A model generated the notes under the pieces. That model was given only the letters and a program-made list of their open reading frames with translations, made no database searches and was not told the DNA's origin. A stretch of 64,000 bases of DNA from a virus. The translations under genes were made by a program, and so were the position numbers. Of the stretch, positions 24,170-57,346 are shown in pieces (position 1 is the first letter of the stretch; each line of letters begins with the position of its first letter). The stretch spans positions 36,156-100,155 of IMG/VR virus record IMGVR_UViG_3300037475_000071; one strand, written 5' to 3'.

Positions 24170-24918
24170 AGATGCCCTATCTCATAACCGACAGCAGCGC
24201 CGAGAGCGATCTCTCCAACCTTTGTCACGCCGTCGAAGATGCGCCGTATCTTGGATTTCTTAGCAACCTTCTCGAAGGCGGCAACGGTGTCATTGCACTT
24301 GTCTAGTGTCTTGGTCACCGTCAGCAGTTCCCCAGTCAATGCCTGCGTCTTTCCCTGCTCGATCTGGTAGAGATTGGTCGTATCTTTCAGGTCGGATACA
24401 GCGGTGTCGCCCTTAATCTTGTCCTGAATGGCTCCTTGCACCTGTGCCGGCGTGAAGGCCAGCTTCTGGTCTGGGGTAATCTGTGCTTGCGCGTCGTAAT
24501 ACTGCTTTACGGCCTTGGCAACATCGTCTGGAGTGACCAGTGCTTGAACCGCCTGCGTCTGTTGCGCAGACTGTGCGTCACGTTGTACGACCGTGCGCGT
24601 TACTACTTGCTGCTGGGCCGTAGCGTTCTTTAGTTGCTGCTCAACCTGCGCCTTCTCGACCTGCATCTGCTTTAACTGCGCTTGATACCCAGCCTGAACC
24701 TGCTCGGCTGCGGCGAGTGCCTTATCATACCCAGTAATCTCGTGTTTCACCACGAAACCCAGTACGAGCAAAGCAGCCAGCAACACTGCTACGAGCAGTC
24801 CACTGACTTGGAGGTGCTTATTGCTTAGGATTTTGGCTTGGTTCTCGAAGCTGGTGAGGATTAACGAAAGGTCACTTTCTATCTTTTGTCCGGTCGTTGG
24901 TAAAGTCGGGGAAGCCAT
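24166..24918 (-). CDS. spanin-like membrane-anchored coiled-coil protein
   Basis: TM VSGLLVAVLLAALLVLGFVV, Gln/Ala coiled coil, hydrophobic Gly-rich C-terminus. Confidence 0.55.
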   Translation of the reverse strand: MASPTLPTTGQKIESDLSLILTSFENQAKILSNKHLQVSGLLVAVLLAALLVLGFVVKHEITGYDKALAAAEQVQAGYQAQLKQMQVEKAQVEQQLKNATAQQQVVTRTVVQRDAQSAQQTQAVQALVTPDDVAKAVKQYYDAQAQITPDQKLAFTPAQVQGAIQDKIKGDTAVSDLKDTTNLYQIEQGKTQALTGELLTVTKTLDKCNDTVAAFEKVAKKSKIRRIFDGVTKVGEIALGAAVGYEIGHL

Positions 24919-25615
24919 CGAAGTCCTCCTTCTTTTGTTCCTCTTTCGGCGTAGGTGGAACGAAGGTCTTGGCGCGTTTCCACTGAAACTCAGTCAGCTC
25001 TACCGGCAAAGATTCCATGTATTTATTGTTAATCGCTGCATGGACTTGGTTGCTAACGAAGCTGAGAACACCTACAATCTTTCCTTTATCGTTGAAAACC
25101 CCTGACCCAGAATCGCCGAAGAACCCGTTGAGGTCATACATCGTTATGCTCTCGGAGTCGGTATCCTCGTCGTCTTTTTTATCGAAGCTGGGACTGTCAT
25201 CGTCGTCAGTTGTTTCGTAGCCGCTAACGTATCCGCGGCGAAACACATCGTTGTTAGCGCCAGGATTACCGAAGATAAAAACCCCGTCACCTTGTTCTGG
25301 GGGCTTTACACTCATCTCTGCTATGTCGGTGAACGTAATACCATCCAGCAAATAGATGGCGTGGTCTAGCCCGTCTTCCATCACTTCGACAACTTTGACA
25401 GACTCCCCGTCTATCTCTATCGTGCGCGTGATTCCCACACAGTGGGCCGCCGTCAATAAAGCATTGGGGCCGACCGCCGTGCCGGAGCATTTCCCTCTAC
25501 CCTCGTTGATGCTACTAACGCGCAAGCGGTGAGTGGACTTGTGGGCGGTGCTCACAACCGAGTCCGCACCGAAGCCGAGGACGGAGCACATCAATATCAT
25601 TAAAAACGTTTTCAC
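24872..25615 (-). CDS. trypsin-like (S1) serine protease with signal peptide
   Basis: CSGT, LTAAHC, DHA, GDSGSG; N-terminus MKTFLMILMCSVLGFGA. Confidence 0.92.
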   Translation of the reverse strand: MKTFLMILMCSVLGFGADSVVSTAHKSTHRLRVSSINEGRGKCSGTAVGPNALLTAAHCVGITRTIEIDGESVKVVEVMEDGLDHAIYLLDGITFTDIAEMSVKPPEQGDGVFIFGNPGANNDVFRRGYVSGYETTDDDDSPSFDKKDDEDTDSESITMYDLNGFFGDSGSGVFNDKGKIVGVLSFVSNQVHAAINNKYMESLPVELTEFQWKRAKTFVPPTPKEEQKKEDFDGFPDFTNDRTKDRK

Positions 25616-25738
25616 TTCTGGTTCTCCTTGTCCTTCTTGGCGGCATCTAGTTTGTCTTTTACAGCTTGGCGGTATCGCGGATCGCGTTTATATCTATCGC
25701 GGGAATATTGCCACAGGATTTCTCGGAAGGTGCCTTCC

Positions 25739-27040: not shown

Positions 27041-27080
27041 CAGTTGGTTGTCTCCTTGTTTATGGGGTTAGAGGTTGACC

Positions 27081-27113
27081 ACAAGGTCTGCCAGTTTCCC
27101 CAGCAGACCTTGT
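27081..27113 (-). terminator. hairpin after the 1138 aa gene
   Basis: ACAAGGTCTGC/GCAGACCTTGT inverted repeat. Confidence 0.55.
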
Positions 27114-27121
27114 AGCGAAGT

Positions 27122-30100
27122 TTACGGGGTTCTTGTTCCTACGAGTACAGCAGAAACTGCGGCATTAACCGTGGTTACATCAGCACCTAAGTCAGTTCCG
27201 TCACTAGCTTGGTCGGCCTGTCCAGCAGCAAACACGCTATTAGTAGCGCATCCCCTAACTGTAGTGCACAACCTGTAGTCGCCACCGCTAGCATTGTTGT
27301 AGTTAACAAACCCTACCGCCGTATGCGATAACTGCCAGATTGGTGAACTCGAAAACACGGTAGGACTAGCCGTAGAGTCCATTAAGTTGTTGTGATCGAA
27401 TACGTACGGAGAGACAAGAACAAATCCGGGAGGAGTTGCCACGGGAGCATATGCTCCTCCGTTGCTTGATAGCTCCCACCCCGTACCAGACACGTTGCAG
27501 TAGAAGGTGTTGCCTGATGCCGGATGTTTGCAACTAGCTAGCGCGACTGCATTCCAGCCTGTGCCTTGGAAAGCCAGCGCCTCGGTATCTGTTGCACCTG
27601 TGCCCTGCGCTTGGTCGGCATCATTGTTCTCCCCGTTCGCATTGATAAACGTAGAAGACCCTGCTGCTGCAATGATGTTGTCCTGAATCTTGAAGTTTAT
27701 AAGCTGGTACTGAGCGATATAGTTATTCAGCCAGAACGGATTGACAGCATCGCCTATCAGAGTGTTGTGGGTAACAAAGATGTTGGCGGCCAGCGGCGTA
27801 GTCGGCGATGTCCAGCTTAGGACATTTATACTGGCCGTTCCACCCAACTGGAACTGCGCTGTAAGTTTTGCAAACCCATTACTCCATCGGTTAAAGCTGC
27901 AATCATCACACACGTTGTTAGTAAACAACACATTGTGAGTGCCTTTAGCGACGTTCAAAGGAACAATAGCAAATCCGGCACCAAAATGCCTGAACATGTT
28001 ATAACGAAGAGTAAAGTCTTGATTATAAGAAGGCCCATACCCAACGGTCACACCATTTCCGTCGGTGACCTGACTGGCTTGGTTAATCGCTTGTACAAGA
28101 CCTGCACTTCCCGTCTGTCCGCCGCCGTTACCCTGCGATCCCCACGCTAACTCAATGAGGTTTTTCTCCAAGAGCAGACGGTTACCGCATTTAGCTTCCC
28201 AGCCATTCTTACTGGTGAACGGCTTGAAATCATAAGCAACAATCGGGGCTGAGGTGCTAACATTGATAGCACTGGAGCCCGTTGTAGTTCCGTCCGTCGC
28301 AAACACAGTGTGTGTGCCGACGCCGGTACCTGAACAATAGATAGCCTCGCCAGCCGCAACGCCTGTAGGGGTAGTGACTGTACCGATAGTGCTATTGCCG
28401 CTGCCATTTCCGGGTGCATCTACGTACCACGTAATACTGCTTGGGGTAAAGTTAGCAAACTCAAATATCGTGTAGCAGAATTGCCGGATGTTCCCCCGAG
28501 CATCTGAATACGATGGCTGTATTTGTAAATCAGATGCCTTGGGACTAACCGCAATCACGTGTGTGGGGCTTGAGCTAACAACCGTCACGGTAGAAGATGC
28601 AGACAGTGTTCGGTTATTCCCTAAATTACCTGCCCTAGAATCGCTAGTTAGAGCGTTCGCTGTAACCACATGGTCACCTAACGTCGTTGCCACGGTGCAC
28701 ACAATGAGTGGAGCCCCTGAGCCAGTACAAACCGTATAGGTGTAGGTTATTTGGTTTGCACTAGCGTAAGGCGTAGTGCCCACATTGTGCTCTCCGTTTT
28801 TAGTTATCACCCCTAGACTAGAACTACCGCCCACCATGCAGGTAAGACTTGTAAATACACAGGTACTTCCGTCAATCGAGAATGATCCCCCTCCAATGGT
28901 GTTGGCATTGCTCATGCGGTTTAAGCCGCCAAAAGAGTCATTGCCCCAATACAATTGCAACTGAAGAGACTGTCCGGGAGTCAACTGCACAGCCGTCGGC
29001 GTTATCGTTAATTCTTGGTCATTAGCTGGCGGGTACGTAGCACCTTCTATTGTTTCTGATTCAAGCAGCGTCTGGCCGTTCTGCGTATTCCAGAGCGGGT
29101 TCTTAAAGAAATGATTTTGCGCCCACCACACATCGTGGGGAACTCCGTCGAACCCTGTTACTGGATTTAATGCTTCGGTGAAAGCACCGCAGAACAGAGA
29201 ACCCATCGTAGAAGACACGGTAAAATTGTTTACAAACTTACCGAAGCCGACGTTGGTATAACCATGACCGCCTCCCCAGAAATAAAACTGTGCGTCTCCT
29301 GAGCCGCCTGCCGCAGTTAAACCAATATCATCCCCGTAGCTATCAAGCAGCGCGACATGTCGTATGCCCGCAAAGTTAAAAGCTCTGCTGGTTTGTCGCT
29401 GAGCATCGCCATGCACGTACACTTGGTCGAAAATAATGTCATTTGGCTGCACATTCATACACGCTGTGGGAGTAACCATAAGCGCGGTGTCCCCTACCGT
29501 CTGGTTGGGATACGGAGCCAATGGATTAGTGGCGCAGTCCTGACCCACAGCAGCAGGTGAGTAGGTCAAATCAACCACCACCGTCAACAAATCGGTCGTC
29601 TGGTCTCGGGTTAATTCAAGCCCAATAAATCGCCAGAATGAAGGCGCAGTTATGCCTGTGCCGCTGCTTGGTACCTTGAGAGAAATAGTAGGAGTGCCTA
29701 ACGATGCTTTGCCAATTAGCACGGGCATGTGCCGTGTTGTGGCGTTAGGCGAGGTGTTCCACGTCGGGTATGGATACTCCGTCAACACCGAATGAGGCAG
29801 GCCAGCAAAAGATGGATCAACCCTTTGTCCCTCGGCCGGAAACGTGGTATCGGTAAAGTCTCGCGTCACCCAAATCCAATTAGAATTGGTGCATACTACG
29901 TCAGGAATAGTGAGATTAGTTTGGCTATATACAGTGTTCTGCATCACCAAAATGTTGCCGCAGACAAGACTGTTGATTGCAGTTTGTAATTGGGCCGTAG
30001 TAAACGAAGCGGAACAGCCCCCAGACAACGCAGCTACGTTAGCCAACGTACCGACACAGACGTAAGGCCCACTGGCAGGAGTCGCAGACCGTGCGGTATT

Positions 30101-30538
30101 CCACGCCAATAAAGTTGAATCAGGAAGAAGGGGAGCCCCTCCTGTGGGAGCCGCCACAATACTAAGGCCGGCATCAAAGATGTCTGTATTAAAAAGACTG
30201 TCCACTACACCAACACGGAATGAACTAGTTCCTGAACTTGTAGGAGTTCCGGTGATTGCACCAGTCGTAGCGTTAAGCGAGAGACCAGCAGGCAACGCCC
30301 CAGAAGTAACAGACCACGTTAGAGTCCCTATGCAATTTACCTGCGCAAGCGTAGCTGAGTAAGCAACACCTTGAGTGCCGGAAGGCAGAGTAGAAGTAGT
30401 GATGTTGCACGTAGCCCCTTGCGAGGCCACGCTGCTACCCACGGACGTACTGGAACCTACGGATGAAGATTGTGCGTAAACACTCGCTGGGCAAAGAATG
30501 CCAATAGCTAGCCCCAGAAGCAAACAAAGTTTTCTCAT
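27122..30538 (-). CDS. large signal-peptide protein with putative Ig (He_PIG) domain and beta-helix (adhesin/depolymerase-like)
   Basis: Signal ...PASVYA/Q; ITTSTLPSGTQGVAYSATL...LPAGLSL..TGAITGTPT; beta-helix-like repeats; C-terminal DGTDLGAD. Confidence 0.8.
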   Translation of the reverse strand: MRKLCLLLGLAIGILCPASVYAQSSSVGSSTSVGSSVASQGATCNITTSTLPSGTQGVAYSATLAQVNCIGTLTWSVTSGALPAGLSLNATTGAITGTPTSSGTSSFRVGVVDSLFNTDIFDAGLSIVAAPTGGAPLLPDSTLLAWNTARSATPASGPYVCVGTLANVAALSGGCSASFTTAQLQTAINSLVCGNILVMQNTVYSQTNLTIPDVVCTNSNWIWVTRDFTDTTFPAEGQRVDPSFAGLPHSVLTEYPYPTWNTSPNATTRHMPVLIGKASLGTPTISLKVPSSGTGITAPSFWRFIGLELTRDQTTDLLTVVVDLTYSPAAVGQDCATNPLAPYPNQTVGDTALMVTPTACMNVQPNDIIFDQVYVHGDAQRQTSRAFNFAGIRHVALLDSYGDDIGLTAAGGSGDAQFYFWGGGHGYTNVGFGKFVNNFTVSSTMGSLFCGAFTEALNPVTGFDGVPHDVWWAQNHFFKNPLWNTQNGQTLLESETIEGATYPPANDQELTITPTAVQLTPGQSLQLQLYWGNDSFGGLNRMSNANTIGGGSFSIDGSTCVFTSLTCMVGGSSSLGVITKNGEHNVGTTPYASANQITYTYTVCTGSGAPLIVCTVATTLGDHVVTANALTSDSRAGNLGNNRTLSASSTVTVVSSSPTHVIAVSPKASDLQIQPSYSDARGNIRQFCYTIFEFANFTPSSITWYVDAPGNGSGNSTIGTVTTPTGVAAGEAIYCSGTGVGTHTVFATDGTTTGSSAINVSTSAPIVAYDFKPFTSKNGWEAKCGNRLLLEKNLIELAWGSQGNGGGQTGSAGLVQAINQASQVTDGNGVTVGYGPSYNQDFTLRYNMFRHFGAGFAIVPLNVAKGTHNVLFTNNVCDDCSFNRWSNGFAKLTAQFQLGGTASINVLSWTSPTTPLAANIFVTHNTLIGDAVNPFWLNNYIAQYQLINFKIQDNIIAAAGSSTFINANGENNDADQAQGTGATDTEALAFQGTGWNAVALASCKHPASGNTFYCNVSGTGWELSSNGGAYAPVATPPGFVLVSPYVFDHNNLMDSTASPTVFSSSPIWQLSHTAVGFVNYNNASGGDYRLCTTVRGCATNSVFAAGQADQASDGTDLGADVTTVNAAVSAVLVGTRTP

Positions 30539-32319: not shown

Positions 32320-32999
32320 TACACATCCTTTATCTGGTTGTCTTGTTGTTCTCGATGAGGACAGACACCATAAATAAATTTCGCCATATTGCAGTTATGG
32401 CACAGCACTTGAAAACCTTCAGGGAAGTTGTGAGTTTTTAGCCACTGGTACATAGATGGAAACTTTCCCTCACGTCTATGTTTGCTACCGCCGCCGTTTA
32501 TATGGTCGATGCAAAGAAAATGCAACATACTTTCCCCGCAACACGCACATTGTGGTGTACCGTTGCTATAGTGTGTCAATACACTGAGACGTAGTTTTCT
32601 TCGTCTTGACCGTTTGGCTTCCGCAAGCTCAACGGAGTACACTTTATGCCTGCGATTACAGTTTTTCCTATGAGCTTGTCTGCATTTAACACACATCGTA
32701 GCTCCCTCATCCGGAGGAAACTTACCACACGTCTGACATAAGCCCTTGCTTTTCCACTCAGAACGCTGCTGTTTGCTTTTATCGTTCTTACAGCGCTTGC
32801 ACTTACCTCTTTTGTCTCTGTTTTCTTCTGTGAGCGCGTGACCCCGCTTGCAGTGCGTCTTCTTGTGGTATGTCTTAGGTGTGAACTTATTATGATGGCC
32901 TTTAAGGAACCGTTTGGGTTGACCCTTCACCATCCCTCGCGGTCGATTAGTGCTGCCGTACACACCTGCATCCTGCCCACAACCGCACTCACAGAGCAT
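32319..32999 (-). CDS. HNH-type endonuclease with multiple Zn fingers
   Basis: CECGCG, KTHCKRGH, CACCGE...IDHINGGG...FQVLCHNCN. Confidence 0.85.
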   Translation of the reverse strand: MLCECGCGQDAGVYGSTNRPRGMVKGQPKRFLKGHHNKFTPKTYHKKTHCKRGHALTEENRDKRGKCKRCKNDKSKQQRSEWKSKGLCQTCGKFPPDEGATMCVKCRQAHRKNCNRRHKVYSVELAEAKRSRRRKLRLSVLTHYSNGTPQCACCGESMLHFLCIDHINGGGSKHRREGKFPSMYQWLKTHNFPEGFQVLCHNCNMAKFIYGVCPHREQQDNQIKDV

Positions 33000-34443: not shown

Positions 34444-34545
34444 GTGTATAGCCCTTTCTGAACTGAAATGAAAATTAAGGGATGCAGCCAAGGTAGGAAA
34501 TGAAAAAGCCGCATCCCTAAGCAGAACGAACTGCGGGATGATTTG

Positions 34546-34579: not shown

Positions 34580-34987
34580 TTATGTGTGTTTGCCGTTGCT
34601 GTCGGTGCTTTGAAAATTAGGGGTTAAAAACCGGCTGATGTCAGTACGCAATTGAGCGATGTCCGACCTCAGTTCCCCCTTCATGGAATTGACCAATGAC
34701 GTTACGCGATCTACCATCTCGGTACGACGCCGCTCTTCATGCTCGAACATCGTCTTAACCTCGGTGTGATGGGCTAATGATTGAGCCTCGGCTTTTTCTA
34801 TCTTTCGTTCCAACTCCATCTTGTTTTCCTTGGCGGCATTCTCGGCTTTTTCAACCCGCGTTTCCATCTCCGATTTGTTCTGTTTCAGAGTCTGGTAAGC
34901 ATCCTTGATGAAGTACCCTACGATGGCAAAAATGCCAGCGATTATAGCACCTACTACTTTAAGAATTTCAACTATGAGTTGTTCCAT
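34580..34987 (-). CDS. single-TM coiled-coil protein (holin/XhlA-like)
   Basis: N-terminal TM then charged coiled coil. Confidence 0.6.
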   Translation of the reverse strand: MEQLIVEILKVVGAIIAGIFAIVGYFIKDAYQTLKQNKSEMETRVEKAENAAKENKMELERKIEKAEAQSLAHHTEVKTMFEHEERRRTEMVDRVTSLVNSMKGELRSDIAQLRTDISRFLTPNFQSTDSNGKHT

Positions 34988-35013: not shown

Positions 35014-37440
35014 TTATGCCGAATACAACCCAACGCAGTACACCTTGACATGAGTGCTGTCTGAAACGTTTCCATTGGTGTCTACGCCTTCTATATAAAT
35101 CTCGTGGGTTGCTTTAGTGCTCAGTGGTACATACTTGTCTATCGCGTACGTGCTTACATTTTCAGGAACATCGAACACGATCGCACCATCTACGAAAATC
35201 CGCACATGGGCGAATGTTGCCGTGGTTCCGGTAACAAGCGTGCCTTGAATACGTATAGGAGAGTAAACGTACGCTCCATCAAACAGCGACAAAACAGAGC
35301 CGCCAAAGAAGTCTCCGCCGCCGTAGCCATCAGTCCCATAACCAACAGTTCCGTAGCCGGTCTGACCTCCTGTGACTGTAACCAAGCCTGCCGTCATAGC
35401 CTGAAGGCCAGTGGTATCGGAAACCGCCAAACTAACGGTAAATTGTCCTGCCGTTCCAAAGATATGACTGCTCGTCCAAGGCGGAGACAACGCTACTGGC
35501 GAACTTCCATCTCCCCACGTTAACTGCTGGGAAGATATAGTACCGTTGGAAGAACTGCTCCCTGAAGCATCAGCAGATACCGTGAGCGGAGCAGTGCCGG
35601 ATGTAGGCGTGAGCACAAGAGAGGCTACGGGAGGATTTGAAATCAACGCATATTTCTGGGCCGTTGATATGGAGTTCTTCATCGACGACTTAGCAACCAT
35701 TTGTACGTACAGGTAGTACGTTCCCGAGCCCAAATTGTAATTTGCCAAATTGAGGCTACTTGAACCAGCCGCGATGTTGTCTTGCAGCACAGCCAGATTA
35801 TTCTGGTCTGTGCTGATATAAACGGTGAAATGGTCGATATTATTCGCAGACCCTGCGCCGGAGGTTGACCAGCTCAATACCGCCGAAGCCAGAGACGACG
35901 ATATGGTAAGGCAACTGTCGATTCCGGATTCAATCTCAGTACCCTCTTCGTAGTCGCTCCACGTCACAGGCTGCAAGTATGGAAGCTGATGGCCAGAACT
36001 GAAATACCCGCTCACACCCCACTCAGAGAAGGTGTCCAACCAGGTTTTACCGCACTGCTGTGCTATGAGCCTGCCGGAGCCCCAACTGGCTATAGAGTCG
36101 TTGAAACCTTTCCAAGAACCCGCCCAAGGAATAAGGGTCGCATGGTTTTTGGCGGCATTGACGAAGGCATCAATAACCAATAGCCCTTCGTCCGTAGAGA
36201 AAGAAGCACTCATGGAATGCGAATTACCTGCCCACTGATAGGCACCCGCCGTATCCGACTTAGTGAATCCGGGGCTGTTCTCGAAGATCAGTTCAATATG
36301 AGTGGCGTAAGTATTGGTGTGCGCGATTACCGCGTCCCACACTGTCTGCCAGCAAGTCTGCGAAGTCGTAGTACAGCCAGCGTTGAACTCAGGGGCCGTG
36401 CTGGTAATGAACGGTACCACTGGAATCTTGCTGGTCGCTGGGTTGATATACTGCGCTGCCCCACCGAAGTAGTGAGTATGAAGATAATCCAAATCGGCGT
36501 TGATTTCACCTGTCATACAGGCAGTCATGCTCGCGTAGCCCATCGTTGTCCAGCCGGGCGTACCACTAGAGCCGGGAGCGTTGTTCACGCCGCAGGTGTA
36601 CGAATAGGAGTGGTCTAACATCCACGTGTATTTCAACGGAGTGCCACTACGACCGTTCATGTCATTAACGAAGTTAGCCGCGTGTGAATCTTGATTGGCG
36701 AAGTTGGCAATCGTGTTGCCACGGCCATACCAGTCCAACAGCATACCGTCTATGTGCCGCCCGATTGCATCGGTATCGACGCGAGCAATGTCGTTAACGT
36801 CGTCGTAGTTATTTGCGTTCTCAACGTGGCTGCGGCAGGCAGTGAACGAAGTAGACACGACGTGCTTGCCGATGCCTCCAGCTTGGCACCACCACAGAAT
36901 TACGGTTGGAAATATCTTGGTGGTGTTCCCGCTGTACAGTAGATTGTGCATGTCCACGTGGCTGATGTTGGTAGCCGCGAGGTCGCCATTTGAGAAACCA
37001 GTGAAGAACGGAGACGCGCCGGAGTTGTTTCCCTGCTGCAAGGCCAACGTAGTAGTAGGATTGATGGTGAATGTTCCGCCCCCACCCGTACCGCCTGTAC
37101 AAGAAGAACTAACAGTGACCGGATTGACAGCCGTGCTATTACTAAACCCACCGGAGTCGAACGCTTTAACGATTAAGTTATACGTCCCCACCGCTAGCGT
37201 CAGATTTTGCGACAGCGTAGCGGAATTGGTAGTAGCGTTCCACAAAAGAGTGTTGCCGTTATTGATTTGCCATCCCGTAACTGTGGCACCTAACGTAGTA
37301 GTCGTTGCAGACGCATTGACAGTCAGCGGTGAGCACACTGTGCTGCTCGCAACTGGCGAGGATACCGTGACCGTCACTCCTGCGGATGCGACCATAGACG
37401 ATAGCAACAGAATCGCCAATGCGTAAAAACGTTTAAGCAT
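35014..37440 (-). CDS. signal-peptide glycoside hydrolase (GH99/GH71-like) with Ig-like and PKD domains
   Basis: Signal ...VASA; LLDWYG, WKGFND, VTWSDYEEGTEIE; PKD PTSGTAPLTV..DAS..S...WGDG...H; YGTVGYGTDGYG. Confidence 0.7.
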   Translation of the reverse strand: MLKRFYALAILLLSSMVASAGVTVTVSSPVASSTVCSPLTVNASATTTTLGATVTGWQINNGNTLLWNATTNSATLSQNLTLAVGTYNLIVKAFDSGGFSNSTAVNPVTVSSSCTGGTGGGGTFTINPTTTLALQQGNNSGASPFFTGFSNGDLAATNISHVDMHNLLYSGNTTKIFPTVILWWCQAGGIGKHVVSTSFTACRSHVENANNYDDVNDIARVDTDAIGRHIDGMLLDWYGRGNTIANFANQDSHAANFVNDMNGRSGTPLKYTWMLDHSYSYTCGVNNAPGSSGTPGWTTMGYASMTACMTGEINADLDYLHTHYFGGAAQYINPATSKIPVVPFITSTAPEFNAGCTTTSQTCWQTVWDAVIAHTNTYATHIELIFENSPGFTKSDTAGAYQWAGNSHSMSASFSTDEGLLVIDAFVNAAKNHATLIPWAGSWKGFNDSIASWGSGRLIAQQCGKTWLDTFSEWGVSGYFSSGHQLPYLQPVTWSDYEEGTEIESGIDSCLTISSSLASAVLSWSTSGAGSANNIDHFTVYISTDQNNLAVLQDNIAAGSSSLNLANYNLGSGTYYLYVQMVAKSSMKNSISTAQKYALISNPPVASLVLTPTSGTAPLTVSADASGSSSSNGTISSQQLTWGDGSSPVALSPPWTSSHIFGTAGQFTVSLAVSDTTGLQAMTAGLVTVTGGQTGYGTVGYGTDGYGGGDFFGGSVLSLFDGAYVYSPIRIQGTLVTGTTATFAHVRIFVDGAIVFDVPENVSTYAIDKYVPLSTKATHEIYIEGVDTNGNVSDSTHVKVYCVGLYSA

Positions 37441-39413: not shown

Positions 39414-39419
39414 GAAACC

Positions 39420-40379: not shown

Positions 40380-40398
40380 GTATGCCCCTTAACTGTGG

Positions 40399-45771: not shown

Positions 45772-45779
45772 GATTTTCC

Positions 45780-52184: not shown

Positions 52185-52234
52185 TTAGTTATGATTCCTT
52201 TCCTTCTAACGAAGGTATGATTATTGCGAGAGGA

Positions 52235-52687
52235 CTACAAATTACTGGTATGGAGGGTTATCTTGCAGGTGTAGTGAGCGTAGAAGTCGCTGTGCACCTT
52301 GAGGAACTTTACAGACTTGTTCCAAAATATGTTAGAGCTTTGATACACGGGAGTGCCCGTTTTGTACGACTCTTTAGGGGTCATCAACGCGGCGTTAAGC
52401 AATCCCCAAATCTGATCTACCCAGTCCACCGCGGAGAGTTCATCATCATTCACCACGTCCAACGACAACTGCAATATACTTACGTGGATGTCGGGGTCTA
52501 ACGCCATTATAGAAACGTTGAATGCGTTCATTTCCAGACGGTCGGCATTGGCATCGGTGGATTGCCGGCGCACTGGGTGCACTGGGATACCGACTAGGTT
52601 GTCAGCTAAGAAATGGAGGAAGGTGTCGTAGCAATTCCTGATCGAGCCGCCATCCGAAGGAGAAGGTAGTTGCCCGAGGATGCCCAT
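52235..52687 (-). CDS. tail terminator-like protein
   Basis: 150 aa directly upstream of tail tube; position-based. Confidence 0.55.
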   Translation of the reverse strand: MGILGQLPSPSDGGSIRNCYDTFLHFLADNLVGIPVHPVRRQSTDANADRLEMNAFNVSIMALDPDIHVSILQLSLDVVNDDELSAVDWVDQIWGLLNAALMTPKESYKTGTPVYQSSNIFWNKSVKFLKVHSDFYAHYTCKITLHTSNL

Positions 52688-52705
52688 ATTTTCAAATCTC
52701 CATTT

Positions 52706-54508
52706 CTAATGCACAAACCTTGAGACAAACCATTTGGTCAGCATCACTGAGGGAGCAATAGCTGGCGTGACACCGGAAGAAAACTGATAAGCGCCGATGT
52801 CCCATGCTGTGCTTCCCGTTGGCCGTGAATTAGAAGTTCTCTGCGAACACACGGACTGAACTACTCCGCTGACGGTTTGCTCGGTACACGCATAAGTCGT
52901 ATCGCTGGTCGAGAATCCGCCGCCGGGCAGCCATGCGGAAGTCAGATTCGTGCCCGTACCGACCGTAGCCGCCGATCCGTTAGGCGGGAAATATACATAG
53001 GGACTCTGGGCACTGGTATATCCCTGCGATGTGCCTGTAGCCTGACTTTCCACTAAATTATTGGAGAAGGTGATGGTGGTTGCGCCCGTGATGGATGCGC
53101 CTCCCGACAACAGGTTTCCACTCTGCGCTGTGCCGCTTGGCGTACCGCTGGTTAGGCACATATTGTTTTGGAAGATGGCGAAGCTGGTCCAGTTAGCCCC
53201 AGAGCATCCGCTATAGGACAGGCATGAATTGCGGCCATCGACGTTCGTATTGTTCACATACCAAATGCCAGTTACGCCGGTCGAGCAACTTTGCGGGATG
53301 TTTGGGCCGTTTGTGCCATTGTCGTTATAGAAAAGGTTGTTCCATACATAGTCGGTTTCGCTGGGATTTCCGACCTGCAAACTCTCGCAGGTTACATTGT
53401 CGTGAATGCGGTTGTCGTGAATATAGTACGGGGTAGCGGTTCCCCCAAGTGTCTCGATGCAGTTGGCATGTACCCCGGCTATACCTTGGCCTAACTGAGT
53501 GATGTCATTGTACGCATACTCTCCGCCAGTTGCGGGCTTGATGCAGTTCGAAAGATAAGAACAGATCGAATGTTGCAAAGGGAACTGTATCCCACCTGCG
53601 GTGAAATGTGTACCGTCGGAGTTGTCGATTACGCTGAACGTTACCGCGCAGTTCGGGCAGGTGTTCGCACCTTCGGCGGAAATCATGCCATCATTGTCGA
53701 GAGACGATGCGCCATTCACTGTAGAGTGGATGTAAAAATCATTGAATGTCTGGTGATCCCCGGTTGTGCCAGGAATGATCCAACCGTCGCGAGTAAAGCA
53801 TCCTGTCCCTGAGCCGTTATTGCTGAAGTAATTTGCAAGCTCAATCCAGTTCCAATCGACAAAGCTGGTTGAGCCGGTGCGGATAAAGATATTATGATTC
53901 GATGTTCCGCATTCAGGTGGGTTGATTACTGAGCCTCCACCATCGAATATCGGTCGGTTCCACGTTAATAAGCCGGAGTTGTACCATGTGCAATTATTGT
54001 CGGTGGTTGTCCCGCCTATGGTTTGATTCCATGTTGCTGGCTGGGTTCCGCCGCTGGTACAGGACGCATGTGTCGGAATCTGCGGACTGTAGGCAAATCC
54101 CCCGGCATTGCCGGTGGTCGGGATGATGACTGTATTAGTGAAGTAACTGGTAGCCGCCGCCCATGCTGGCGCTGTGCAGGTGGAAGACCATGTTTGATCT
54201 ACCCCGATAGTAATGTGCGATCCGCTCGTTCCACTCCATGCCCACGTAATCGGGAAATTCGCGTTCCCCCAATCATCGCAGCCCTTTAGGACGAAGGTAT
54301 CTCCCGCGACCGGAGTGTAAGCGGCAACGTTTCCCGATGCAGACAACATTCCGGGAAGATGCGCCCAGGGCGTCGTCTTTGACTGCGCCTGCGTCGAGGT
54401 ATTTGTATCTGACCCAGAAGTGGAGATGAAATAGGTATGCTGCGCAAACGCAGGCGAAAAGCATACCGCGACAAATATCCACAACGCATATCGTCGTAAG
54501 TGGTTCAT
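52706..54508 (-). CDS. signal-peptide beta-helix protein with inserted carbohydrate-binding-like module
   Basis: MNHLRRYALWIFVAVCFSPAFA/Q; YFISTSGSD.N...PW.H, GDT..LK.G, WDIGAYQF; insert WAAATSY...SGGTQP.W...TTDNNCTW. Confidence 0.78.
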   Translation of the reverse strand: MNHLRRYALWIFVAVCFSPAFAQHTYFISTSGSDTNTSTQAQSKTTPWAHLPGMLSASGNVAAYTPVAGDTFVLKGCDDWGNANFPITWAWSGTSGSHITIGVDQTWSSTCTAPAWAAATSYFTNTVIIPTTGNAGGFAYSPQIPTHASCTSGGTQPATWNQTIGGTTTDNNCTWYNSGLLTWNRPIFDGGGSVINPPECGTSNHNIFIRTGSTSFVDWNWIELANYFSNNGSGTGCFTRDGWIIPGTTGDHQTFNDFYIHSTVNGASSLDNDGMISAEGANTCPNCAVTFSVIDNSDGTHFTAGGIQFPLQHSICSYLSNCIKPATGGEYAYNDITQLGQGIAGVHANCIETLGGTATPYYIHDNRIHDNVTCESLQVGNPSETDYVWNNLFYNDNGTNGPNIPQSCSTGVTGIWYVNNTNVDGRNSCLSYSGCSGANWTSFAIFQNNMCLTSGTPSGTAQSGNLLSGGASITGATTITFSNNLVESQATGTSQGYTSAQSPYVYFPPNGSAATVGTGTNLTSAWLPGGGFSTSDTTYACTEQTVSGVVQSVCSQRTSNSRPTGSTAWDIGAYQFSSGVTPAIAPSVMLTKWFVSRFVH

Positions 54509-54643
54509 AATTTTATGGGTACTCGAAGGTGTAGACCCCAGCTTCCTGAGAAGCTGCGGCGGTAGTTGTCGTAAGTGGTTCATAATTTTATGGGTACTCG
54601 AAGGTGTAGACCCCAGCTTCCTGAGAAGCTGCGGCGGTAGTTG
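54493..54643. repeat. perfect 75 bp tandem duplication spanning a gene junction
   Basis: 54493-54567 identical to 54568-54642. Confidence 0.95.
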
Positions 54644-55343
54644 CTGTACCGGAGACTGTGTAACTACCAACGGATGTTTCAACTGCATAGCATCCAATCA
54701 GGGCCGACGAAGTTCCGTTGCCTAGAACGGCTTGCGTAAATCCGCCGCCGCAGGAATATCCGGGATTCGCAGTGAACTGCGAAATCCATCCAAAGACGAG
54801 TTCGTGGCCTTGGGCTGTGGTTCCACTTGCATTCGTGGCCCAAGTGGTCGTGTTTTGGGCCAGCATTGCAGGGTTTTTGTCTAAGCAAGCACTGGTATTG
54901 ACGCCGGAAAATTCTAAGACCGCATCATTTTGCGAGAAGCCGCCAAAATCAATCGCAGTGAAGGCTACCGATGAGCACGTGTACCATGCCTGATCCTGTA
55001 CGCCAGCGCCAGACAACTGCGTCCAGGTCGCTGAAGGAGTTGAGACTGGGCCAGTAGACACGCAATTGTCGTTTGAATCCGCTCCGCACAAGGCAATGAC
55101 CAGGTGCCCGGTTCCAGTCGTGGCCAATGTTGGAGTGTTGTTGCACTGCGGACTTCCTGAGGTATTGATTACGCAGTGCGTGGCTGTGTTTTTGCAGTCG
55201 CAGTTGAGGTTTTGGATTAGGGCGACGCTCCCGCCGCCCCCACCCGTCACTTGGAAATCCCCGGTACCGGGATCGCCAGCCACCCCTTGGCCAAAGCAAA
55301 CAACGGAGCATAACAACATTACACTAAGAATTATTGATCGCAT
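54588..55343 (-). CDS. Cys-rich signal-peptide beta-sandwich protein
   Basis: MRSIILSVMLLCSVVCFG/Q; Gly linker; LEFSGVNT..LD. Confidence 0.75.
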   Translation of the reverse strand: MRSIILSVMLLCSVVCFGQGVAGDPGTGDFQVTGGGGGSVALIQNLNCDCKNTATHCVINTSGSPQCNNTPTLATTGTGHLVIALCGADSNDNCVSTGPVSTPSATWTQLSGAGVQDQAWYTCSSVAFTAIDFGGFSQNDAVLEFSGVNTSACLDKNPAMLAQNTTTWATNASGTTAQGHELVFGWISQFTANPGYSCGGGFTQAVLGNGTSSALIGCYAVETSVGSYTVSGTATTAAASQEAGVYTFEYP

Positions 55344-57346
55344 TCGAGTTGTACCTGTACCATTTTGGAGGTTGCAACAGCGGTGATGTTTGCCGCCACA
55401 ATATCATTCGGCGTCACCGTCGTAGTAGTGAAATCCGTAAGCGTAGTTGAATGGAGTGCCGTACCTGTTGCCAAAGAAACGCCACTGGTAGAAATTGAGT
55501 TAGATACAGTGGGAATTGCCGTACCGCTGGCAATCTTCCAGAACTTTACAGTGAACGTTCCAGCGTCAGCTAGTAGATTGTAGGCCGACACTGTACAGCC
55601 GAACGGAACTGTCACATACCGAGTAATGCTGCTTGATAGTGCCGAGCCTTCCGCCGCGCCAAATGTAAAGGTAATGGTGCGAATCTTGATGCGGTCTACA
55701 TAGGCGGTCGTTGCCACTTTGGTGGAATTGTCATCCGCGGACTGCGTAGTTGCCGTTATGCCACTCGGCAAAGCCGTGGCTGGAGTAACTCCTCCATTAG
55801 CATCACCAACAGCTATTTTCGTGGCATCGAAGGTTCCCGTACCTGTCTGCACATTAGCGTCGGTGCCGTTCAGGGCCTTAGAGGACGTAATTGTCGTTGC
55901 ACTGCCGGCCACTGCAACCTGTCCTACAGTCATCCCAGAAAGAGAACCGGAAGATGGCGCAACAAGCCTTGCATTCCAAATAGTGCTTTCGCCGTTACTG
56001 ACGGTCGCGCTGCCAGAATCAACGATTGTGAAGCTAGTCTGTGCAGTAGCTTTAGCCACCGTGCCAGTGAGGTTGATTGTGTCGCTTCCACCGCGATTGA
56101 CTGTGAGGGTAGAACCACTCTCATTGATGAGAGCGAATACCATACTGCTACCGCAGCCAGTTGCCGTGTGATCTGGTAGAGTCACTACGCTGGCACCGGA
56201 ATCAAATACAATCGTCGTATTGCGGTCTATAAGTGCCGTTGAACTATCGCACTGAACTACATAAGGCGTGGTAGTAACGTGTGCTCCGCTGTTCCCATCC
56301 TTTAAGCCGGGAGAAGCAAACGCCATCGCTGAGCCATTGGTCGCGGTTGGAACCTGGCCAGTCTTCGCAGCGGTATCATTGATAGGGGTATCCCAAGATG
56401 TATTGGAGCCAGTGTGATGAGCAATTCCAGTGCCGGATGGCCAAGTCATTGAACCAGCACCGGTAGCCAGAGCCGTCCATGTATTAGTCGCCGAGCAAAA
56501 CTTCATCGCTACACCGACCGAGTTAAACTCAATCTGCCCAGCCGTACAAGTAGCGGGGTCAGACGAATGAATCGGCTGCAACACATCCATAGCGCTGAAG
56601 TCCTGTAACCCCCCGCCTGAATAGGTGTTTGCCTGGTTCTTAAAAATAATGTTCGCAACGTCAGACAAATCCGCAGACGCAGGCTGTGCTTTTGTGAACG
56701 CGCCTGTTGTACTGTTATACGCACTAAAGAACTGGTGCGTAGTAGCAGTGGTATTAGCAGCAAGAGTCGGCGTACCAGTCAGACTGGAATAGGCCGTACC
56801 ATTGCAAAATGCACTAGCGTCTGATAGGTCAGCGCAGGCCGGGCGGAAATATGCAGGCGTTCCTAATACCCCAGTGTTATTACCAAAGAAAGTATGTGCC
56901 GCCGCTTGCGACAGAGAAAAAGCAGGTGTAGTAGTTGGATTAGCTACAGTAAATAACGGAGCCAAGCCGCTCACAGTGGTTACGGTTCCTGAGCCACCAC
57001 CGACACCTGTAGTGGCGCTTATCTGGCACCGAGTAATGGATGTTGCAAACCCTACTGCCGATTCCTGACACCAGTAAATGCCGGGTGTAGCGAAGAATAT
57101 ATAATTAGCATTCAAATCTGCTACGGTGGTGGTTCCTAAAGATTGGGTGAGGGCTGCATCGCTGTACAGAGTAATAGGACTGGCGCACGCTTGGTCAGTG
57201 CATACCTTAATAGTTGCGCCGGGAATAGCAATCAATGCGTTGCTGTTTATCAGCTTACCTTCGGCCTTGTCTTTATACAGACCACCTTGGGCAAACGCAC
57301 CACACGAGGACAGAAGCAAAAATACAACAAAATGTCTCAATGACAC
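55331..57346 (-). CDS. fibre/spike-like protein with signal peptide
   Basis: MSLRHFVVFLLLSSCGAFA/Q; IPGATI.V...LYSD.........AD...Y.FFA.PG.Y anchor-like domain; TQSADDNSTKVATTAYV fibre repeat. Confidence 0.8.
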   Translation of the reverse strand: MSLRHFVVFLLLSSCGAFAQGGLYKDKAEGKLINSNALIAIPGATIKVCTDQACASPITLYSDAALTQSLGTTTVADLNANYIFFATPGIYWCQESAVGFATSITRCQISATTGVGGGSGTVTTVSGLAPLFTVANPTTTPAFSLSQAAAHTFFGNNTGVLGTPAYFRPACADLSDASAFCNGTAYSSLTGTPTLAANTTATTHQFFSAYNSTTGAFTKAQPASADLSDVANIIFKNQANTYSGGGLQDFSAMDVLQPIHSSDPATCTAGQIEFNSVGVAMKFCSATNTWTALATGAGSMTWPSGTGIAHHTGSNTSWDTPINDTAAKTGQVPTATNGSAMAFASPGLKDGNSGAHVTTTPYVVQCDSSTALIDRNTTIVFDSGASVVTLPDHTATGCGSSMVFALINESGSTLTVNRGGSDTINLTGTVAKATAQTSFTIVDSGSATVSNGESTIWNARLVAPSSGSLSGMTVGQVAVAGSATTITSSKALNGTDANVQTGTGTFDATKIAVGDANGGVTPATALPSGITATTQSADDNSTKVATTAYVDRIKIRTITFTFGAAEGSALSSSITRYVTVPFGCTVSAYNLLADAGTFTVKFWKIASGTAIPTVSNSISTSGVSLATGTALHSTTLTDFTTTTVTPNDIVAANITAVATSKMVQVQLECDQ

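Follow-up and report, generated by a model that had tools for sequence, protein, structure and literature searches.

Seven late genes for predicted Sec-exported proteins, several resembling glycan-active enzymes, in a soil phage of Acidobacteriota type

The phage studied here, a soil virus with a ~100-kb genome and of Acidobacteriota type, encodes seven large late proteins, here SP1 to SP7, with predicted bacterial export signals. Sec export of the seven is well supported at the sequence level, because the signals are of canonical host type, are retained in divergent homologues and precede Cys-enriched mature parts. We give about an even chance to the reading that these genes form an accessory set whose Sec-exported products act on glycans of the envelope or matrix. 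Judged from sequence and models, the set would comprise three proteins resembling glycan-active enzymes (SP2 and SP5, which are beta-helix lyase/hydrolase-like, and SP4, which is GH71/GH99-like), an S1 protease (SP1), a mosaic fibre- or adhesin-like protein (SP7), and SP3 and SP6, which have no assigned fold. The folds found fit the 'fibres, adhesins and depolymerases' proposed in an earlier sequence-only reading of the window (the whole 64,000-nucleotide stretch of DNA that was analysed). All seven ORFs are present on the minus strand (Table 1), and the single positions by which that reading listed them are their 3' ends. One or two further signal-bearing genes lie beyond the window in the same phage genome.

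Table 1. Signal-bearing genes and neighbouring features in the window (a slash marks the predicted cleavage site).
Feature	Position	Strand	Remarks
Two membrane proteins, 250 aa (TM + coiled coil) and 118 aa (multiple TMs)	23813..24918	-	adjoin SP1
SP1: predicted exported trypsin-like (S1) serine protease, 247 aa	24872..25615	-	Pfam, PHROG, motifs
SP2: predicted exported, 1138 aa, He_PIG Ig domain, right-handed beta-helix, inserted Ig-like domains	27122..30538	-	
SP3: predicted exported Gly-rich protein, 561 aa	30634..32319	-	signal MKKILFVLLACCLAGA/Q
SP4: predicted exported, 808 aa, Ig/FN3-like, GH71/GH99-like centre, PKD, C-terminal beta domain	35014..37440	-	
Signal-less distal tail set: 993 aa, 706-aa beta-helix-like, 319 aa, 534 aa	37809..45517	-	
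Tail-terminator-like protein	52235..52687	-	downstream border of SP7-SP6-SP5 insertion
SP5: predicted exported, ~600 aa, right-handed beta-helix (Pel9A/DUF1565-like)	52706..54508	-	signal MNHLRRYALWIFVAVCFSPAFA/Q
Tandem duplication, 75 bp, 2.0 copies, perfect	54493..54643	.	spans SP6 stop and SP5 start
SP6: predicted exported Cys-rich protein, 251 aa	54588..55343	-	signal ...LLCSVVCFG/Q; 12 Cys
SP7: predicted exported or lipidated mosaic fibre-like protein, 671 aa	55331..57346	-	signal MSLRHFVVFLLLSSCGAFA/Q
gp7-like neck protein	57376..57819	-	upstream border of SP7-SP6-SP5 insertion

Signals were called with a heuristic applied to all 100,155 bp of the genome, and lambda, Tunturi 3 and Tunturi 4 served as comparisons. 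All seven proteins rank among the genome's highest scores, and in each a positively charged n-region is followed by a hydrophobic core free of charges and by a small-x-small cleavage motif, which confirms the earlier claim of seven signal peptides once the start of SP5 is corrected. The signals are Sec-type and mostly end in A-x-A/Q; the individual ends include VYA/Q (SP2), AGA/Q (SP3), ASA/G (SP4), CFG/Q (SP6), AFA/Q (SP7) and GFG/A (SP1, whose signal is MKTFLMILMCSVLGFG). Among ORFs of at least 200 aa, flagged proteins hold 4,547 of 19,815 residues in this phage, as against 206 of 9,279 in lambda, 420 of 10,893 in Tunturi 4 and 0 in Tunturi 3, an excess that is more than chance. In lambda the scan flagged the known envelope proteins Lom, Rz, Bor and RexB, together with a single small ORF, and nothing else. 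Glutamine at +1 is also the commonest residue in the predicted signals of an Acidobacteriota MAG (11/54, against a background of 3.9%), and the A/Q ends of the phage signals thus look both canonical and host-type.

That these N-termini are not export signals, but start artefacts, inner-membrane assembly anchors or chance, seems to us very improbable. Such a reading can point to the two candidate starts of SP5 and to the SP1 homologue of the relative G302, which has a hydrophobic N-terminus and no clear cleavage motif. The start first listed for SP5 (TTG 54697) overruns; the signal (MNHLRRYALW...AFA/Q) begins at ATG 54508, which the Atlas gene call also uses, and the alternative in-frame ATG at 54583 has its source in the 75-bp duplication (TRF: period 75, 100% matches, score 302), which repeats 25 codons in frame. 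Against this reading, dozens of divergent homologues have a signal at their true N-terminus (the signal sequences themselves are unconserved), the cleavage motifs and +1 glutamine agree with host usage, the lambda control was specific, and Cys enrichment goes with the signal in two phages. Relatives do keep the signals: they are retained in ~37 of 42 mosaic homologues of SP7, in all examined full-length SP2-family members lacking N-terminal truncation, in the SP3 homologues P0045 (60% over the N-terminus, full length) and L056 (76%), and in an SP6 homologue 85% identical (P0203, with its own signal, ...EVCG/Q). Several of the proteins had also been described as Cys-rich, and at 4.8% (SP6), 3.2% (SP5, 19 Cys), 2.1% (SP2) and ~1.95% (SP3 and SP7) they stand far above the TMP (0.08%), portal (0.35%) and MCP (0.66%), with conserved Cys pairs in the mature parts.

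The sequence-only reading placed all seven genes among core morphogenesis genes. This holds for only three, SP5, SP6 and SP7, which lie inside the morphogenesis block, bordered by the gp7-like neck gene on one side and the tail terminator on the other; SP4, SP3, SP2 and SP1 come after the tail genes, in the company of genes for exonuclease, HNH and dNMP kinase and of lysis-like membrane genes. In relatives the neck-protein homologues (33–48% identical) directly abut the homologue of the tail-terminator-like protein, which itself shares 36% identity with Tunturi 4 gp8 (annotated tail terminator) and 47% with its G302 counterpart. G302, the closest complete relative (94 kb, CheckV 100%), and the cultured siphovirus Tunturi 4 are both without SP2–SP7, their neck and tail-terminator genes being adjacent, so that, judged by these genomes, the nearest relatives can do without SP2–SP7. 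At the corresponding slots, further relatives have other genes, some of them signal-less.

The absence of these genes from the same positions in close relatives is one point in favour of lysogenic-conversion cargo (morons), which would be expressed from a prophage and change the host surface (phage exclusion, adhesion, matrix turnover), the late-region placement merely reflecting tolerance of insertions. The genome also encodes a tyrosine integrase (G000 28387–29460, PF00589, E = 2e-32), the P0045 homologue of SP3 lies on a 1.5-Mb contig, and in an Acidobacteriota MAG island, where the genes examined included none for phage structure, a homologue of an SP7 module neighbours an integrase and defence genes. 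Lambda lom and bor, both recovered by our heuristic control, are the textbook precedent. We nonetheless consider moron cargo unlikely. Promoter-like or terminator-like sites do not frame the signal-bearing genes and are not in excess there, and the gaps around them are tiny or negative (-13 to 123 bp; SP6 overlaps the SP7 stop by 13 nt). Their GC content (0.505–0.546) is phage-like and not that of the host-type MAG (0.594), L056 preserves the order SP4-SP3-SP2 inside a late block, and related signal-bearing genes occur in Tunturi 1, which was isolated as a plaque-forming virus.

The sequence-only reading itself held that the proteins are virion appendages, which fold oxidatively after export and dock onto particles once lysis mixes the compartments; in such a model, SP7 and SP3 above all, and perhaps the beta-helices, would be fibres or spikes that fold in the periplasm and bind finished particles upon holin triggering. 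Our comparisons lend docking after lysis no support, and we regard it as improbable. The nearest relatives form particles without SP2–SP7, and the phage has a complete signal-less tail set of its own, whose 993-aa member shares 41% identity with Tunturi 4 gp15 and whose 534-aa member shares 35% with gp16, a Tunturi 4 product annotated as tail protein. The heuristic scan flagged none of this set except for a weak score on the 534-aa protein, and BLAST found no paralogy between it and SP2 or SP5. No recognisable virion-anchor domain follows any of the seven signals, and the lipobox-like Cys of SP7 (LSSC) and of several SP2 relatives would tether those proteins to a membrane. The SP3 motif was seen only on signal-bearing proteins, isolated phages giving no match; the nearest relatives of SP2 and SP4 are secreted bacterial enzymes; and SP1 stands at a lysis position. 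The literature searched describes no such route of assembly for tailed phages.

Several placements do favour appendages. At the neck/tail slot occupied here by SP5–SP7, the relatives L021 and L009 have genes for collagen- or fibre-like proteins that lack signals. In the complete phages G304, G305 and G306, signal-bearing giants end the structural block, the expected place of fibres or spikes, and in the structural block of the cultured Tunturi 1 four consecutive signal-bearing Cys-rich genes follow a tail protein gene, one of them (gp14) annotated as the tail spike. The placements in G304–G306 and Tunturi 1 also weigh against an action on glycans. The families are, moreover, phage-associated and rare in host genomes.

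SP7 bears most directly on this question. Its residues 344–465 form a confidently predicted beta-sandwich (pLDDT ~90) that resembles the Pa223 capsid spike (Z 10.5), a KP1 baseplate protein (9.2), the Solidus tailspike (8.5) and the N-terminal domains of CBA120 TSP4 (8.1), and the model thus suggests a domain like the XD domains of phage spikes, as the appendage reading would have it. The C-terminus matches phrog_35197. A repeat in SP7 also recurs in a signal-less protein whose gene, in a related phage, lies between those for capsid and adaptor; this repeat and the spike-like domain both sit uneasily with the glycan-directed reading.

The three enzyme-like proteins are best described from their folds. 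SP2 (Pfam He_PIG, E = 1.3e-11) gave an AF2 model of pLDDT 64 and pTM 0.62, which VIA-align matched to alginate lyase 6kfn (Z 21.7), the VPS lyase RbmB (9ozd, Z 20.6) and AlgE4 (Z 20.2), with phage tailspikes (Z 15–19) slightly below these secreted lyases. SP4 has Pfam PKD_4 (E = 1.2e-9) and FN3-like and PKD matches to PDB chains, and in the ESM Atlas it falls with mostly Acidobacteriota clusters (features 0.93–0.95, TM 0.77–0.82), some of which carry Glyco_hydro_71/99. SP5 falls in the Atlas with beta-helix/Pel9A-like clusters (features 0.93, TM 0.54–0.63), and a distant signal-bearing homologue occurs in phage G306. L056 carries SP4 at 94% identity, against 47% for the adjacent exonuclease, and SP2 at 75% in the same gene order. 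SP3 matched nothing in Pfam or PHROG; the motif just past its signal has the same placement in Tunturi 1 gp13. Since SP3 was not found in 401 Acidobacteriota genomes and SP5 has one marginal match in 301, these are not simply borrowed host enzymes. This near-absence also counts against the glycan-directed reading.

The polysaccharide-active-enzyme folds of SP2, SP4 and SP5 might instead mark auxiliary metabolic genes, whose secreted products would feed the infected host from environmental polymers, as soil virus literature reads viral CAZymes (PMC13507307). We think this quite improbable: the set includes a protease, a fibre-like protein, SP3 and SP6, late co-expression just before lysis would leave little time for nutritional gain, and the mosaic, fast-evolving architecture is of the kind usual in cell-surface recognition proteins.

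SP1 has Pfam Trypsin_2 (E = 2.7e-15) and Trypsin (6.3e-10) domains and matches the protease family phrog_9683, and the TAAHC and GDSGSG motifs can be read directly in its sequence. Family searches gave no match for the two adjacent membrane proteins, homologues of both of which also follow the SP1 homologue in G302. Because SP1 is conserved with these two proteins where Tunturi 4 has gp26–gp29, an endolysin among them, the three make a candidate lysis cassette and SP1 probably belongs to the lysis step.

Under the glycan-directed reading, which corresponds to the cell-surface or matrix remodelling that the sequence-only reading offered as its alternative and which fits better than docking, the proteins would be produced together with the late genes, their own genes being packed in the late transcription direction. 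Precursors would cross the inner membrane via SecYEG and be cleaved by signal peptidase I (SP7 and some SP2 relatives may be cut by signal peptidase II), with disulfides forming in the periplasm. Sec by itself takes proteins only to the periplasm in diderms, and an extracellular role therefore needs lysis or a second secretion step. The targets would be polysaccharide and protein of the envelope or matrix, attacked either in the periplasm and envelope before lysis or in the surroundings after release by lysis. Exopolysaccharide and receptor-bearing debris could so be cleared from round the burst cell, and progeny would not be trapped.

Parts of this arrangement have parallels. Lambda Lom and Bor, T5 Llp and T4 Spackle are exported by Sec or lipoprotein signals, act at the host envelope without being part of the virion, and are encoded beside tail or lysis genes; they are, however, small single proteins, binders or outer-membrane components, whereas here there are several large multi-domain enzyme- or fibre-like proteins, with no sign of promoters of their own. 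Exported endolysins, by Sec or SAR signals, are known from Oenococcus phage fOg44 (Lys44) and P1 (Lyz). SP1 is likewise a predicted exported hydrolase beside holin- or spanin-like membrane proteins, but is an S1 protease without a known muralytic domain, its lysis role being suggested by position. Phage depolymerases (CBA120 TSP2, K5A lyase, those of Klebsiella phages) share the beta-helix fold with SP2 and SP5 and, likely, host surface polysaccharide as substrate. To our knowledge, known phage depolymerases are synthesised in the cytoplasm and bear no signal peptide; SP2, in contrast, best matches monomeric secreted bacterial lyases, and no virion-anchor domain was found in it.

The MAT fibres of Bdellovibrio bacteriovorus are mosaic, tail-fibre-like proteins in which a signal peptide is followed by a conserved beta-rich domain, and they are exported to a cell surface (Caulton et al., 2024; PMC10769870). 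SP7 is similarly built, with a signal, then beta domains and swapped distal modules, although MAT fibres are encoded by a predatory bacterium and not a phage, and the structural likeness of the SP7 C-terminus to MAT 8ok3 is weak (Z 3.6). Soil prophage CAZymes are also phage-encoded and in part predicted to be secreted, with SignalP signals on 3,261 of 64,678 (5%), but they are catalogued singly as metabolic genes (PMC13507307), whereas here a clustered late set, including a protease and fibre-like proteins, lies in or beside the morphogenesis block. The nearest precedent in print is that of the Porphyromonas gingivalis phages, in which five genes of no assigned function obey the Bacteroidetes Q-rule, which the authors took as a sign that the phages enlist host secretion to alter the envelope (Matrishin et al., 2023; PMC10367356). 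In those phages, as in this one, the Sec signals are host-typed and cleavage leaves glutamine as the first residue. Their host, however, belongs to the Bacteroidota and no enzymes or fibre-like proteins are named among their products, while the present phage, of Acidobacteriota type, carries seven such genes in one late arm, for proteins of 251–1138 aa, some of them resembling glycan-active enzymes.

The window takes in bases 36156–100155 of the IMG/VR record of this phage (100,155 bp), which is rated 100% complete. Its late arm opens with a portal (phrog_145, E 1.9e-45), a scaffold and an HK97-type major head protein (phrog_247, E 1.4e-29), followed by an HNH insert and the head–tail adaptor Ad1, then by homologues of gp7, the tail terminator gp8 and the major tail protein gp9 of phage Tunturi 4, and further on by a tape measure and homologues of Tunturi 4 gp15 and gp16. 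Most of the tail genes had no match in a PHROGs search. Its portal shares 49% identity with the portal of Tunturi 4, a cultured siphovirus with an Acidobacteriota host (PMC11924767), so an acidobacterium is, on portal similarity, the most likely host. A tyrosine recombinase (Phage_integrase, E 2e-32) is encoded outside the window, and the phage may be temperate. The HNH insert is one of two Cys-rich HNH-type endonuclease genes inserted in the late arm; it separates the major head protein gene from the adaptor gene, and the second is directly upstream of SP3, whose start it overlaps by 1 nt. Within the tail module, a gene for an acyl-carrier-like protein (Pfam PP-binding, E 1.6e-6) lies between a 131-aa gene and the 993-aa tail protein gene, with a 4-nt overlap on each side, and just downstream of SP4 is a gene whose product, with a transmembrane helix at its N-terminus and a coiled coil, weakly matches an Rz-like spanin (phrog_739, E 3.8e-4).

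Coordinates of the late-arm genes, neighbouring features and related loci discussed in the text
Feature	Location	Strand	Size
Late arm	window, from about 64000 down to 22700	minus	
SP1 and two membrane proteins	window 23813–25615		
SP1	window 24872–25615	minus	247 aa
SP2	window 27122–30538	minus	1138 aa
SP3	window 30634–32319	minus	561 aa
HNH-type gene upstream of SP3	window 32319–32999		
Protein with weak spanin match	window 34580–34987		135 aa
SP4	window 35014–37440	minus	808 aa
Acyl-carrier-like protein	window 45514–45783		89 aa
SP5	window 52706–54508	minus	about 600 aa
Tandem duplication	window 54493–54643		75 bp, 2.0 copies
SP6	window 54588–55343	minus	251 aa
SP7	window 55331–57346	minus	671 aa
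HNH-type gene between head and adaptor genes	window 58898–59617		
Additional strong signal	whole genome (G000) 16111–16701	early strand	196 aa
Tyrosine recombinase	whole genome (G000) 28387–29460		
Possible ninth exported candidate	whole genome (G000) 33903–34529	early strand	208 aa
SP1 and membrane-protein homologues	complete relative G302, 38469–40682		
SP4–SP2 order	metagenome contig L056 (Ga0207664_10002960), 127–9755		11-kb contig
SP7-module pair	Acidobacteriota MAG locus L022 (CAVPFO010000002.1), 9500–13083		524 and 670 aa
Consecutive signal-bearing genes	Tunturi 1 (L077, PP887698), 10371–23028		

Seven late-arm genes (SP1–SP7) had been read from the sequence alone as beginning with signal peptides, and all seven ORFs are real. 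To every ORF of the genome we applied a rule-based scan requiring an n-region of net non-negative charge, an uncharged core of 8–16 residues with a mean Kyte–Doolittle hydropathy of at least 1.6, and small residues at –3 and –1. It bore the reading out in full (7/7), each protein having a positive n-region, an uncharged hydrophobic core of about 7–15 residues and small –3/–1 residues, with SP3 (5.0), SP2 (4.54), SP4 (4.41), SP7 (4.38) and SP1 (3.64) among the top scorers of the genome. In a control on lambda, the script's hits were Lom, Rz, Bor, RexB and one small ORF, with no head or tail protein among them. Among ORFs of at least 200 aa, flagged proteins account for 4,547 of the 19,815 residues in this phage, or about one-quarter, compared with 206 of 9,279 in lambda, 776 of 17,191 in G302 (the closest complete relative) and, over the first 50 kb of each genome, 420 of 10,893 in Tunturi 4 and 0 of 12,291 in Tunturi 3. 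The signal-bearing design is also found among complete genomes of unrelated soil phages and in one cultured phage of Acidobacteriota. Neither Pfam nor a reading of the C-termini revealed a T9SS C-terminal domain or a PEP-CTERM signal.

For SP5 the start had to be moved to ATG 54508, where its signal begins. The stop of SP6 and the start of SP5 are both covered by a perfect 75-bp tandem duplication (100% identity), which happened recently or else is an artefact of assembly. It makes a second in-frame ATG (54583) 25 codons upstream, from which translation would add 25 residues before the signal. Outside the window, the early strand encodes a further protein with a strong signal (ending LATA↓Q, the arrow marking the predicted cleavage site) and a 208-aa protein with a hydrophobic N-terminus. 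BLAST among the window proteins gave no similarity except a minor one, a 92-aa domain that SP4 (residues 499–590) shares with this 208-aa protein at 30% identity.

Homologues keep their signals. In the SP7 family, 32 of 42 mosaic homologues carry one by rule and about five more have one behind over-extended starts; in the SP2 family, signals occur in all of the full-length homologues examined that are not N-terminally truncated, most of them ending in A↓Q. The sole SP3 homologue found beyond this phage group, P0045 of a 1.5-Mb contig, has a nearly identical signal, an SP6 homologue (P0203) follows the same logic with a different signal sequence, and an SP5-like protein in the complete phage genome G306 is likewise signal-bearing. 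Across these families it is the feature that is conserved and not the signal sequence itself, and the expectation that related proteins would retain their signals, as opposed to starting downstream of the hydrophobic segment, held. This favours the signals being real, and the alternative that the hydrophobic N-termini are not export signals at all is very improbable given their retention despite such divergence.

Glutamine occupies position +1 in six of the eight strong signals of the phage genome, and it is also the commonest +1 residue (11 of 54 predicted signals, background 3.9%) in an Acidobacteriota MAG (G001, L036–L055, contig 5, 1.0–1.4 Mb), where, by the same kind of heuristic, several more predicted signals have AQ just downstream of the predicted site. 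Because +1 Q usage is alike in phage and MAG, the phage signals look tuned to the signal peptidase of the host. Most homologues of the SP proteins likewise expose Q after the predicted cleavage site. The Q-rule was described as specific to Bacteroidetes, in a study that does not mention Acidobacteria (PMC5837995); as a side observation on a heuristic basis, a Q-rule-like pattern appears here outside Bacteroidetes, in the Acidobacteriota MAG and the phage. Lipobox-like ends are present in SP7 (LSSC), its closest homologue (LSAC), SP2 relatives (LTGC or LSGC) and SP3 (LLAC), with A↓Q a few residues further on in all of them, and some of the signals could instead be of the lipoprotein (signal peptidase II) type.

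Several of the same proteins had been called Cys-rich, and cysteine content does set the signal-bearing proteins apart from the signal-less ones: the share is 4.8% in SP6, 3.2% in SP5, 2.1% in SP2, about 1.95% in SP3 and SP7, 1.4% in SP4 and 1.2% in SP1, against 0.08% in the tape measure, 0.35% in the portal, 0.66% in the major head protein and 0.9% in the 993-aa tail protein. C366 and C398 are invariant in the alignment of the SP7 module, and C193, C216, C335 and C360 are nearly so in the SP2 family. As far as sequence can tell, export and periplasmic maturation of the SP proteins are likely.

SP1 is by sequence an S1 (chymotrypsin-fold) serine peptidase (Trypsin_2, 57.8 bits, cut-off 27.6), with readable TAAHC, DHAI and GDSGSG motifs. 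SP2 has a He_PIG Ig domain and is modelled (pLDDT 64) with a long right-handed beta-helix into which Ig-like domains are inserted. Foldseek on the whole protein was dominated by the Ig domains; the beta-helix matches came from VIA-align, led by a Paenibacillus alginate lyase (6kfn, Z 21.7, rmsd 2.6, 285 aligned), the Vibrio cholerae biofilm-matrix lyase RbmB (9ozd, Z 20.6) and AlgE4, an alginate epimerase (Z 20.2), with Pel9A (1ru4) at Z 15.4 and phage tailspikes at Z 15–19, slightly lower than the best lyases. A scan of IMG/VR for the SP2 family gave no match, and a metagenome scan gave three family members and one short Ig-domain match. SP5 resembles Pel9A/DUF1565-type beta-helices (ESM Atlas features 0.93, TM 0.54–0.63). 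The predicted folds of SP2 and SP5 are thus of the right-handed beta-helix, PL6/PL9/GH28-like kind, with Pfam Beta_helix and Pel9A undetected in the beta-helix candidates even at E 5. SP4 begins with an FN3-like domain and also contains a PKD domain; the ESM Atlas clusters nearest its centre are mostly from Acidobacteriota (features 0.93–0.95, TM 0.77–0.82) and in part GH71/GH99, 13–49% of their members carrying Glyco_hydro_71. As Pfam does not detect it, the GH71/GH99-like centre is a lead and not a family assignment. SP3 is Gly-rich. At E up to 5, Pfam had no match for the SP2 body, the central 486 residues of SP4, SP5, SP6 or the ends of SP7.

SP7 is a tail-fibre-like mosaic in which only residues 344–465 fold confidently (full-length pLDDT 52). 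This beta-sandwich matched a capsid spike from a Pseudomonas phage (Z 10.5), a baseplate protein from a Klebsiella phage (Z 9.2), a tailspike from an Acinetobacter phage (Z 8.5) and the domains at the N-terminus of CBA120 TSP4 (Z 8.1), whose attachment region it resembles; these values are slightly above the tool background of 7–8, and the top five matches are all phage spike proteins. The protein types first proposed, namely depolymerases, adhesins and fibres, agree with the predicted folds. A fibre or beta-helix fold is predicted for SP2, SP5 and, as a spike-type beta-sandwich, SP7, a fold that secreted bacterial enzymes have as well. It is improbable that the set represents auxiliary metabolic genes.

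The comparative anatomy of related late arms is the decisive evidence at hand. A portal alignment fetched 19 related loci from IMG/VR, while a single-sequence scan of that database with the Ad1 adaptor gave no match. G302, a genome of 94,356 bp whose major head protein is 70% identical, is syntenic throughout the late arm, has its gp7-like gene followed directly by the tail-terminator homologue, and contains none of SP2–SP7. Three other loci (L008, L010 and L017) show the same adjacency, as does cultured Tunturi 4, from which SP2–SP7 are again absent, the flanking genes being adjacent there. Other relatives carry different genes at these positions: signal-less fibre-like genes, one of them collagen-like, at the gp7/tail-terminator slot in L021 and L009; two large signal-less genes, one sharing a repeat with SP7, between the capsid and adaptor genes in L012 and L020; and a 799-aa signal-bearing gene directly after the portal in L006. 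These differences mark the positions as variable cargo slots, and since G302 and Tunturi 4 do without SP2–SP7, these genes are not required for particle building in this lineage. The phage also retains distal tail genes without signals, four in number (993, 706, 319 and 534 aa), of which the first and last are homologous to Tunturi 4 gp15 and gp16, respectively. The idea that SP2 or SP5 is an exported twin of the signal-less 706-aa spike was rejected, as neither shows BLAST similarity or paralogy to the tail set.

These comparisons divide the original proposal, in which exported fibres, adhesins and depolymerases, encoded among core morphogenesis genes, dock onto virions. Three of the seven genes do lie inside the morphogenesis block and the other four outside it; export and periplasmic maturation are likely and the protein types agree, but docking is unsupported for this phage, given the absence of SP2–SP7 from G302 and Tunturi 4 and its own signal-less tail set. 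We accordingly consider it unlikely that the SP proteins are exported virion appendages, a reading against which their lack of conservation in the tail module of close relatives counts directly. Evidence in its favour comes from other phages. The SP7 module occurs in nine other IMG/VR contigs, three of them complete (G304, G305 and G306), in giant signal-bearing proteins (527–2448 aa) that are placed in tandem where the structural block ends. In Tunturi 1, a cultured podovirus, four consecutive genes (gp12, gp13, gp14 and gp17) right after the ‘tail protein’ gp11 encode large proteins with classical signal peptides and 1.5–2.7% Cys, versus 0–0.6% in its signal-less structural proteins; gp14 is annotated as ‘tail spike protein’ and gp17 as ‘virion structural protein’, although these labels are homology-derived. 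Tunturi 1 gp13, to which Tunturi 2 gp13 is 99.7% identical, has just past its signal the same motif as mature SP3, a motif found only after signals among the loci compared. The paper describing these phages reports neither signal peptides nor proteomics (PMC11924767). With SP7, SP3 and the SP3 mature N-terminus as queries, tblastn (E up to 10) gave no matches in 50,697 isolated phage records.

If the appendage reading were nonetheless correct, Acidobacteriota phages including cultured Tunturi 1 and 2 would send Cys-rich spikes or fibres through Sec for periplasmic maturation, by signal cleavage, disulfide formation and perhaps an N-terminal pyroglutamate, and these would join cytoplasmic particles at or after holin triggering; in the window this would concern at least SP7 and SP3. 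We hold such a route to be doubtful. It would make phage assembly span two compartments, which would be new for tailed phages.

Borrowing of the genes from hosts was rejected: SP3 was found in none of 401 Acidobacteriota genomes and SP5 as a marginal match in one of 301, counts that also lean towards a virion role. One Acidobacteriota MAG (L022) encodes a homologue of the SP7 middle module and an adjoining signal-bearing protein; the chromosomal island that holds them also has genes for ThiF, RiboL-PSP HEPN, TIR and an integrase, and no phage structural genes were among the neighbours examined. Exchange between phages is seen on a related 11-kb metagenome contig (L056), where SP4 (94% identical), SP3 (76%) and SP2 (75%) are kept in order and with their signals. 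The full order there is SP4, a 113-aa homologue of the 135-aa gene, an exonuclease, an HNH-like gene, SP3 and SP2. The exonuclease adjacent to SP4 is 47% identical, and this disparity shows recent mosaic exchange of SP4 between phages.

Presence or absence between conserved neighbours, as seen for SP2–SP7 among the relatives, is what a moron would show, and together with the integrase it would suit lysogenic-conversion cargo expressed from a prophage. Against this, the GC content of the SP genes (0.505–0.546) matches that of the phage (about 0.51) and does not set them apart from their surroundings, and promoter- or terminator-like consensus sites are neither in excess nor framing the SP genes, although the host's promoter types may differ from the consensus. 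The genes are also tightly packed, with gaps to their neighbours of –13 to 123 bp. Phage-like composition, packing and the lack of framing sites argue that the genes are co-expressed late and have long resided in phage genomes, and we think prophage-expressed cargo an unlikely description of the set.

SP1 differs from SP2–SP7 in that its homologue is conserved in G302, where it too has a hydrophobic N-terminus and is accompanied by homologues of the 250-aa and 118-aa membrane proteins. In our phage these three genes lie just after the dNMP kinase, and at the equivalent position Tunturi 4 has gp26–gp29, which include its endolysin. A non-exhaustive search with Tunturi 4 endolysin, SLT and Phage_lysozyme queries found no canonical endolysin in the genome. 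From gene position we infer that SP1 is part of the lysis step, in which its protease may act.

Taken together, the reading we rate best, at about an even chance, is that the SP set is an accessory toolkit, expressed late and secreted, which is directed at glycans of the host envelope or matrix, SP1 being linked to lysis. If its members are free or envelope-bound enzymes, they would represent a phage strategy for escape from the thick exopolysaccharide matrix of soil Acidobacteria, and acid-stable, disulfide-bonded depolymerases could be drawn from them. The question is directly testable in a cultured system, that of Tunturi 1 and 2 with Tunturiibacter psychrotolerans X5P2.

The usual teaching is that tailed phages assemble in the cytoplasm and routinely export lysis and exclusion factors only, and Lom, Bor, Llp and Spackle are known exported accessory proteins. 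In the literature searched we found no description of signal peptides on virion fibres or receptor-binding proteins of tailed phages. Q-rule signal proteins of Porphyromonas phages have been interpreted as envelope modifiers (Matrishin et al., 2023; PMC10367356), and a 2026 survey reported SignalP signals on 5% of soil prophage CAZymes (PMC13507307). The MAT proteins of Bdellovibrio are exported, phage-fibre-like adhesins with a conserved beta-rich domain after the signal peptide (PMC10769870). Residues 553–671 of SP7, whose full-length model is poor, matched the MAT structure 8ok3 at a Z of only 3.6. In design, SP7 is similar to the MAT fibres, which combine a signal, a beta-rich domain that is conserved and spans ~130 aa, a trimeric beta-prism and a variable tip.
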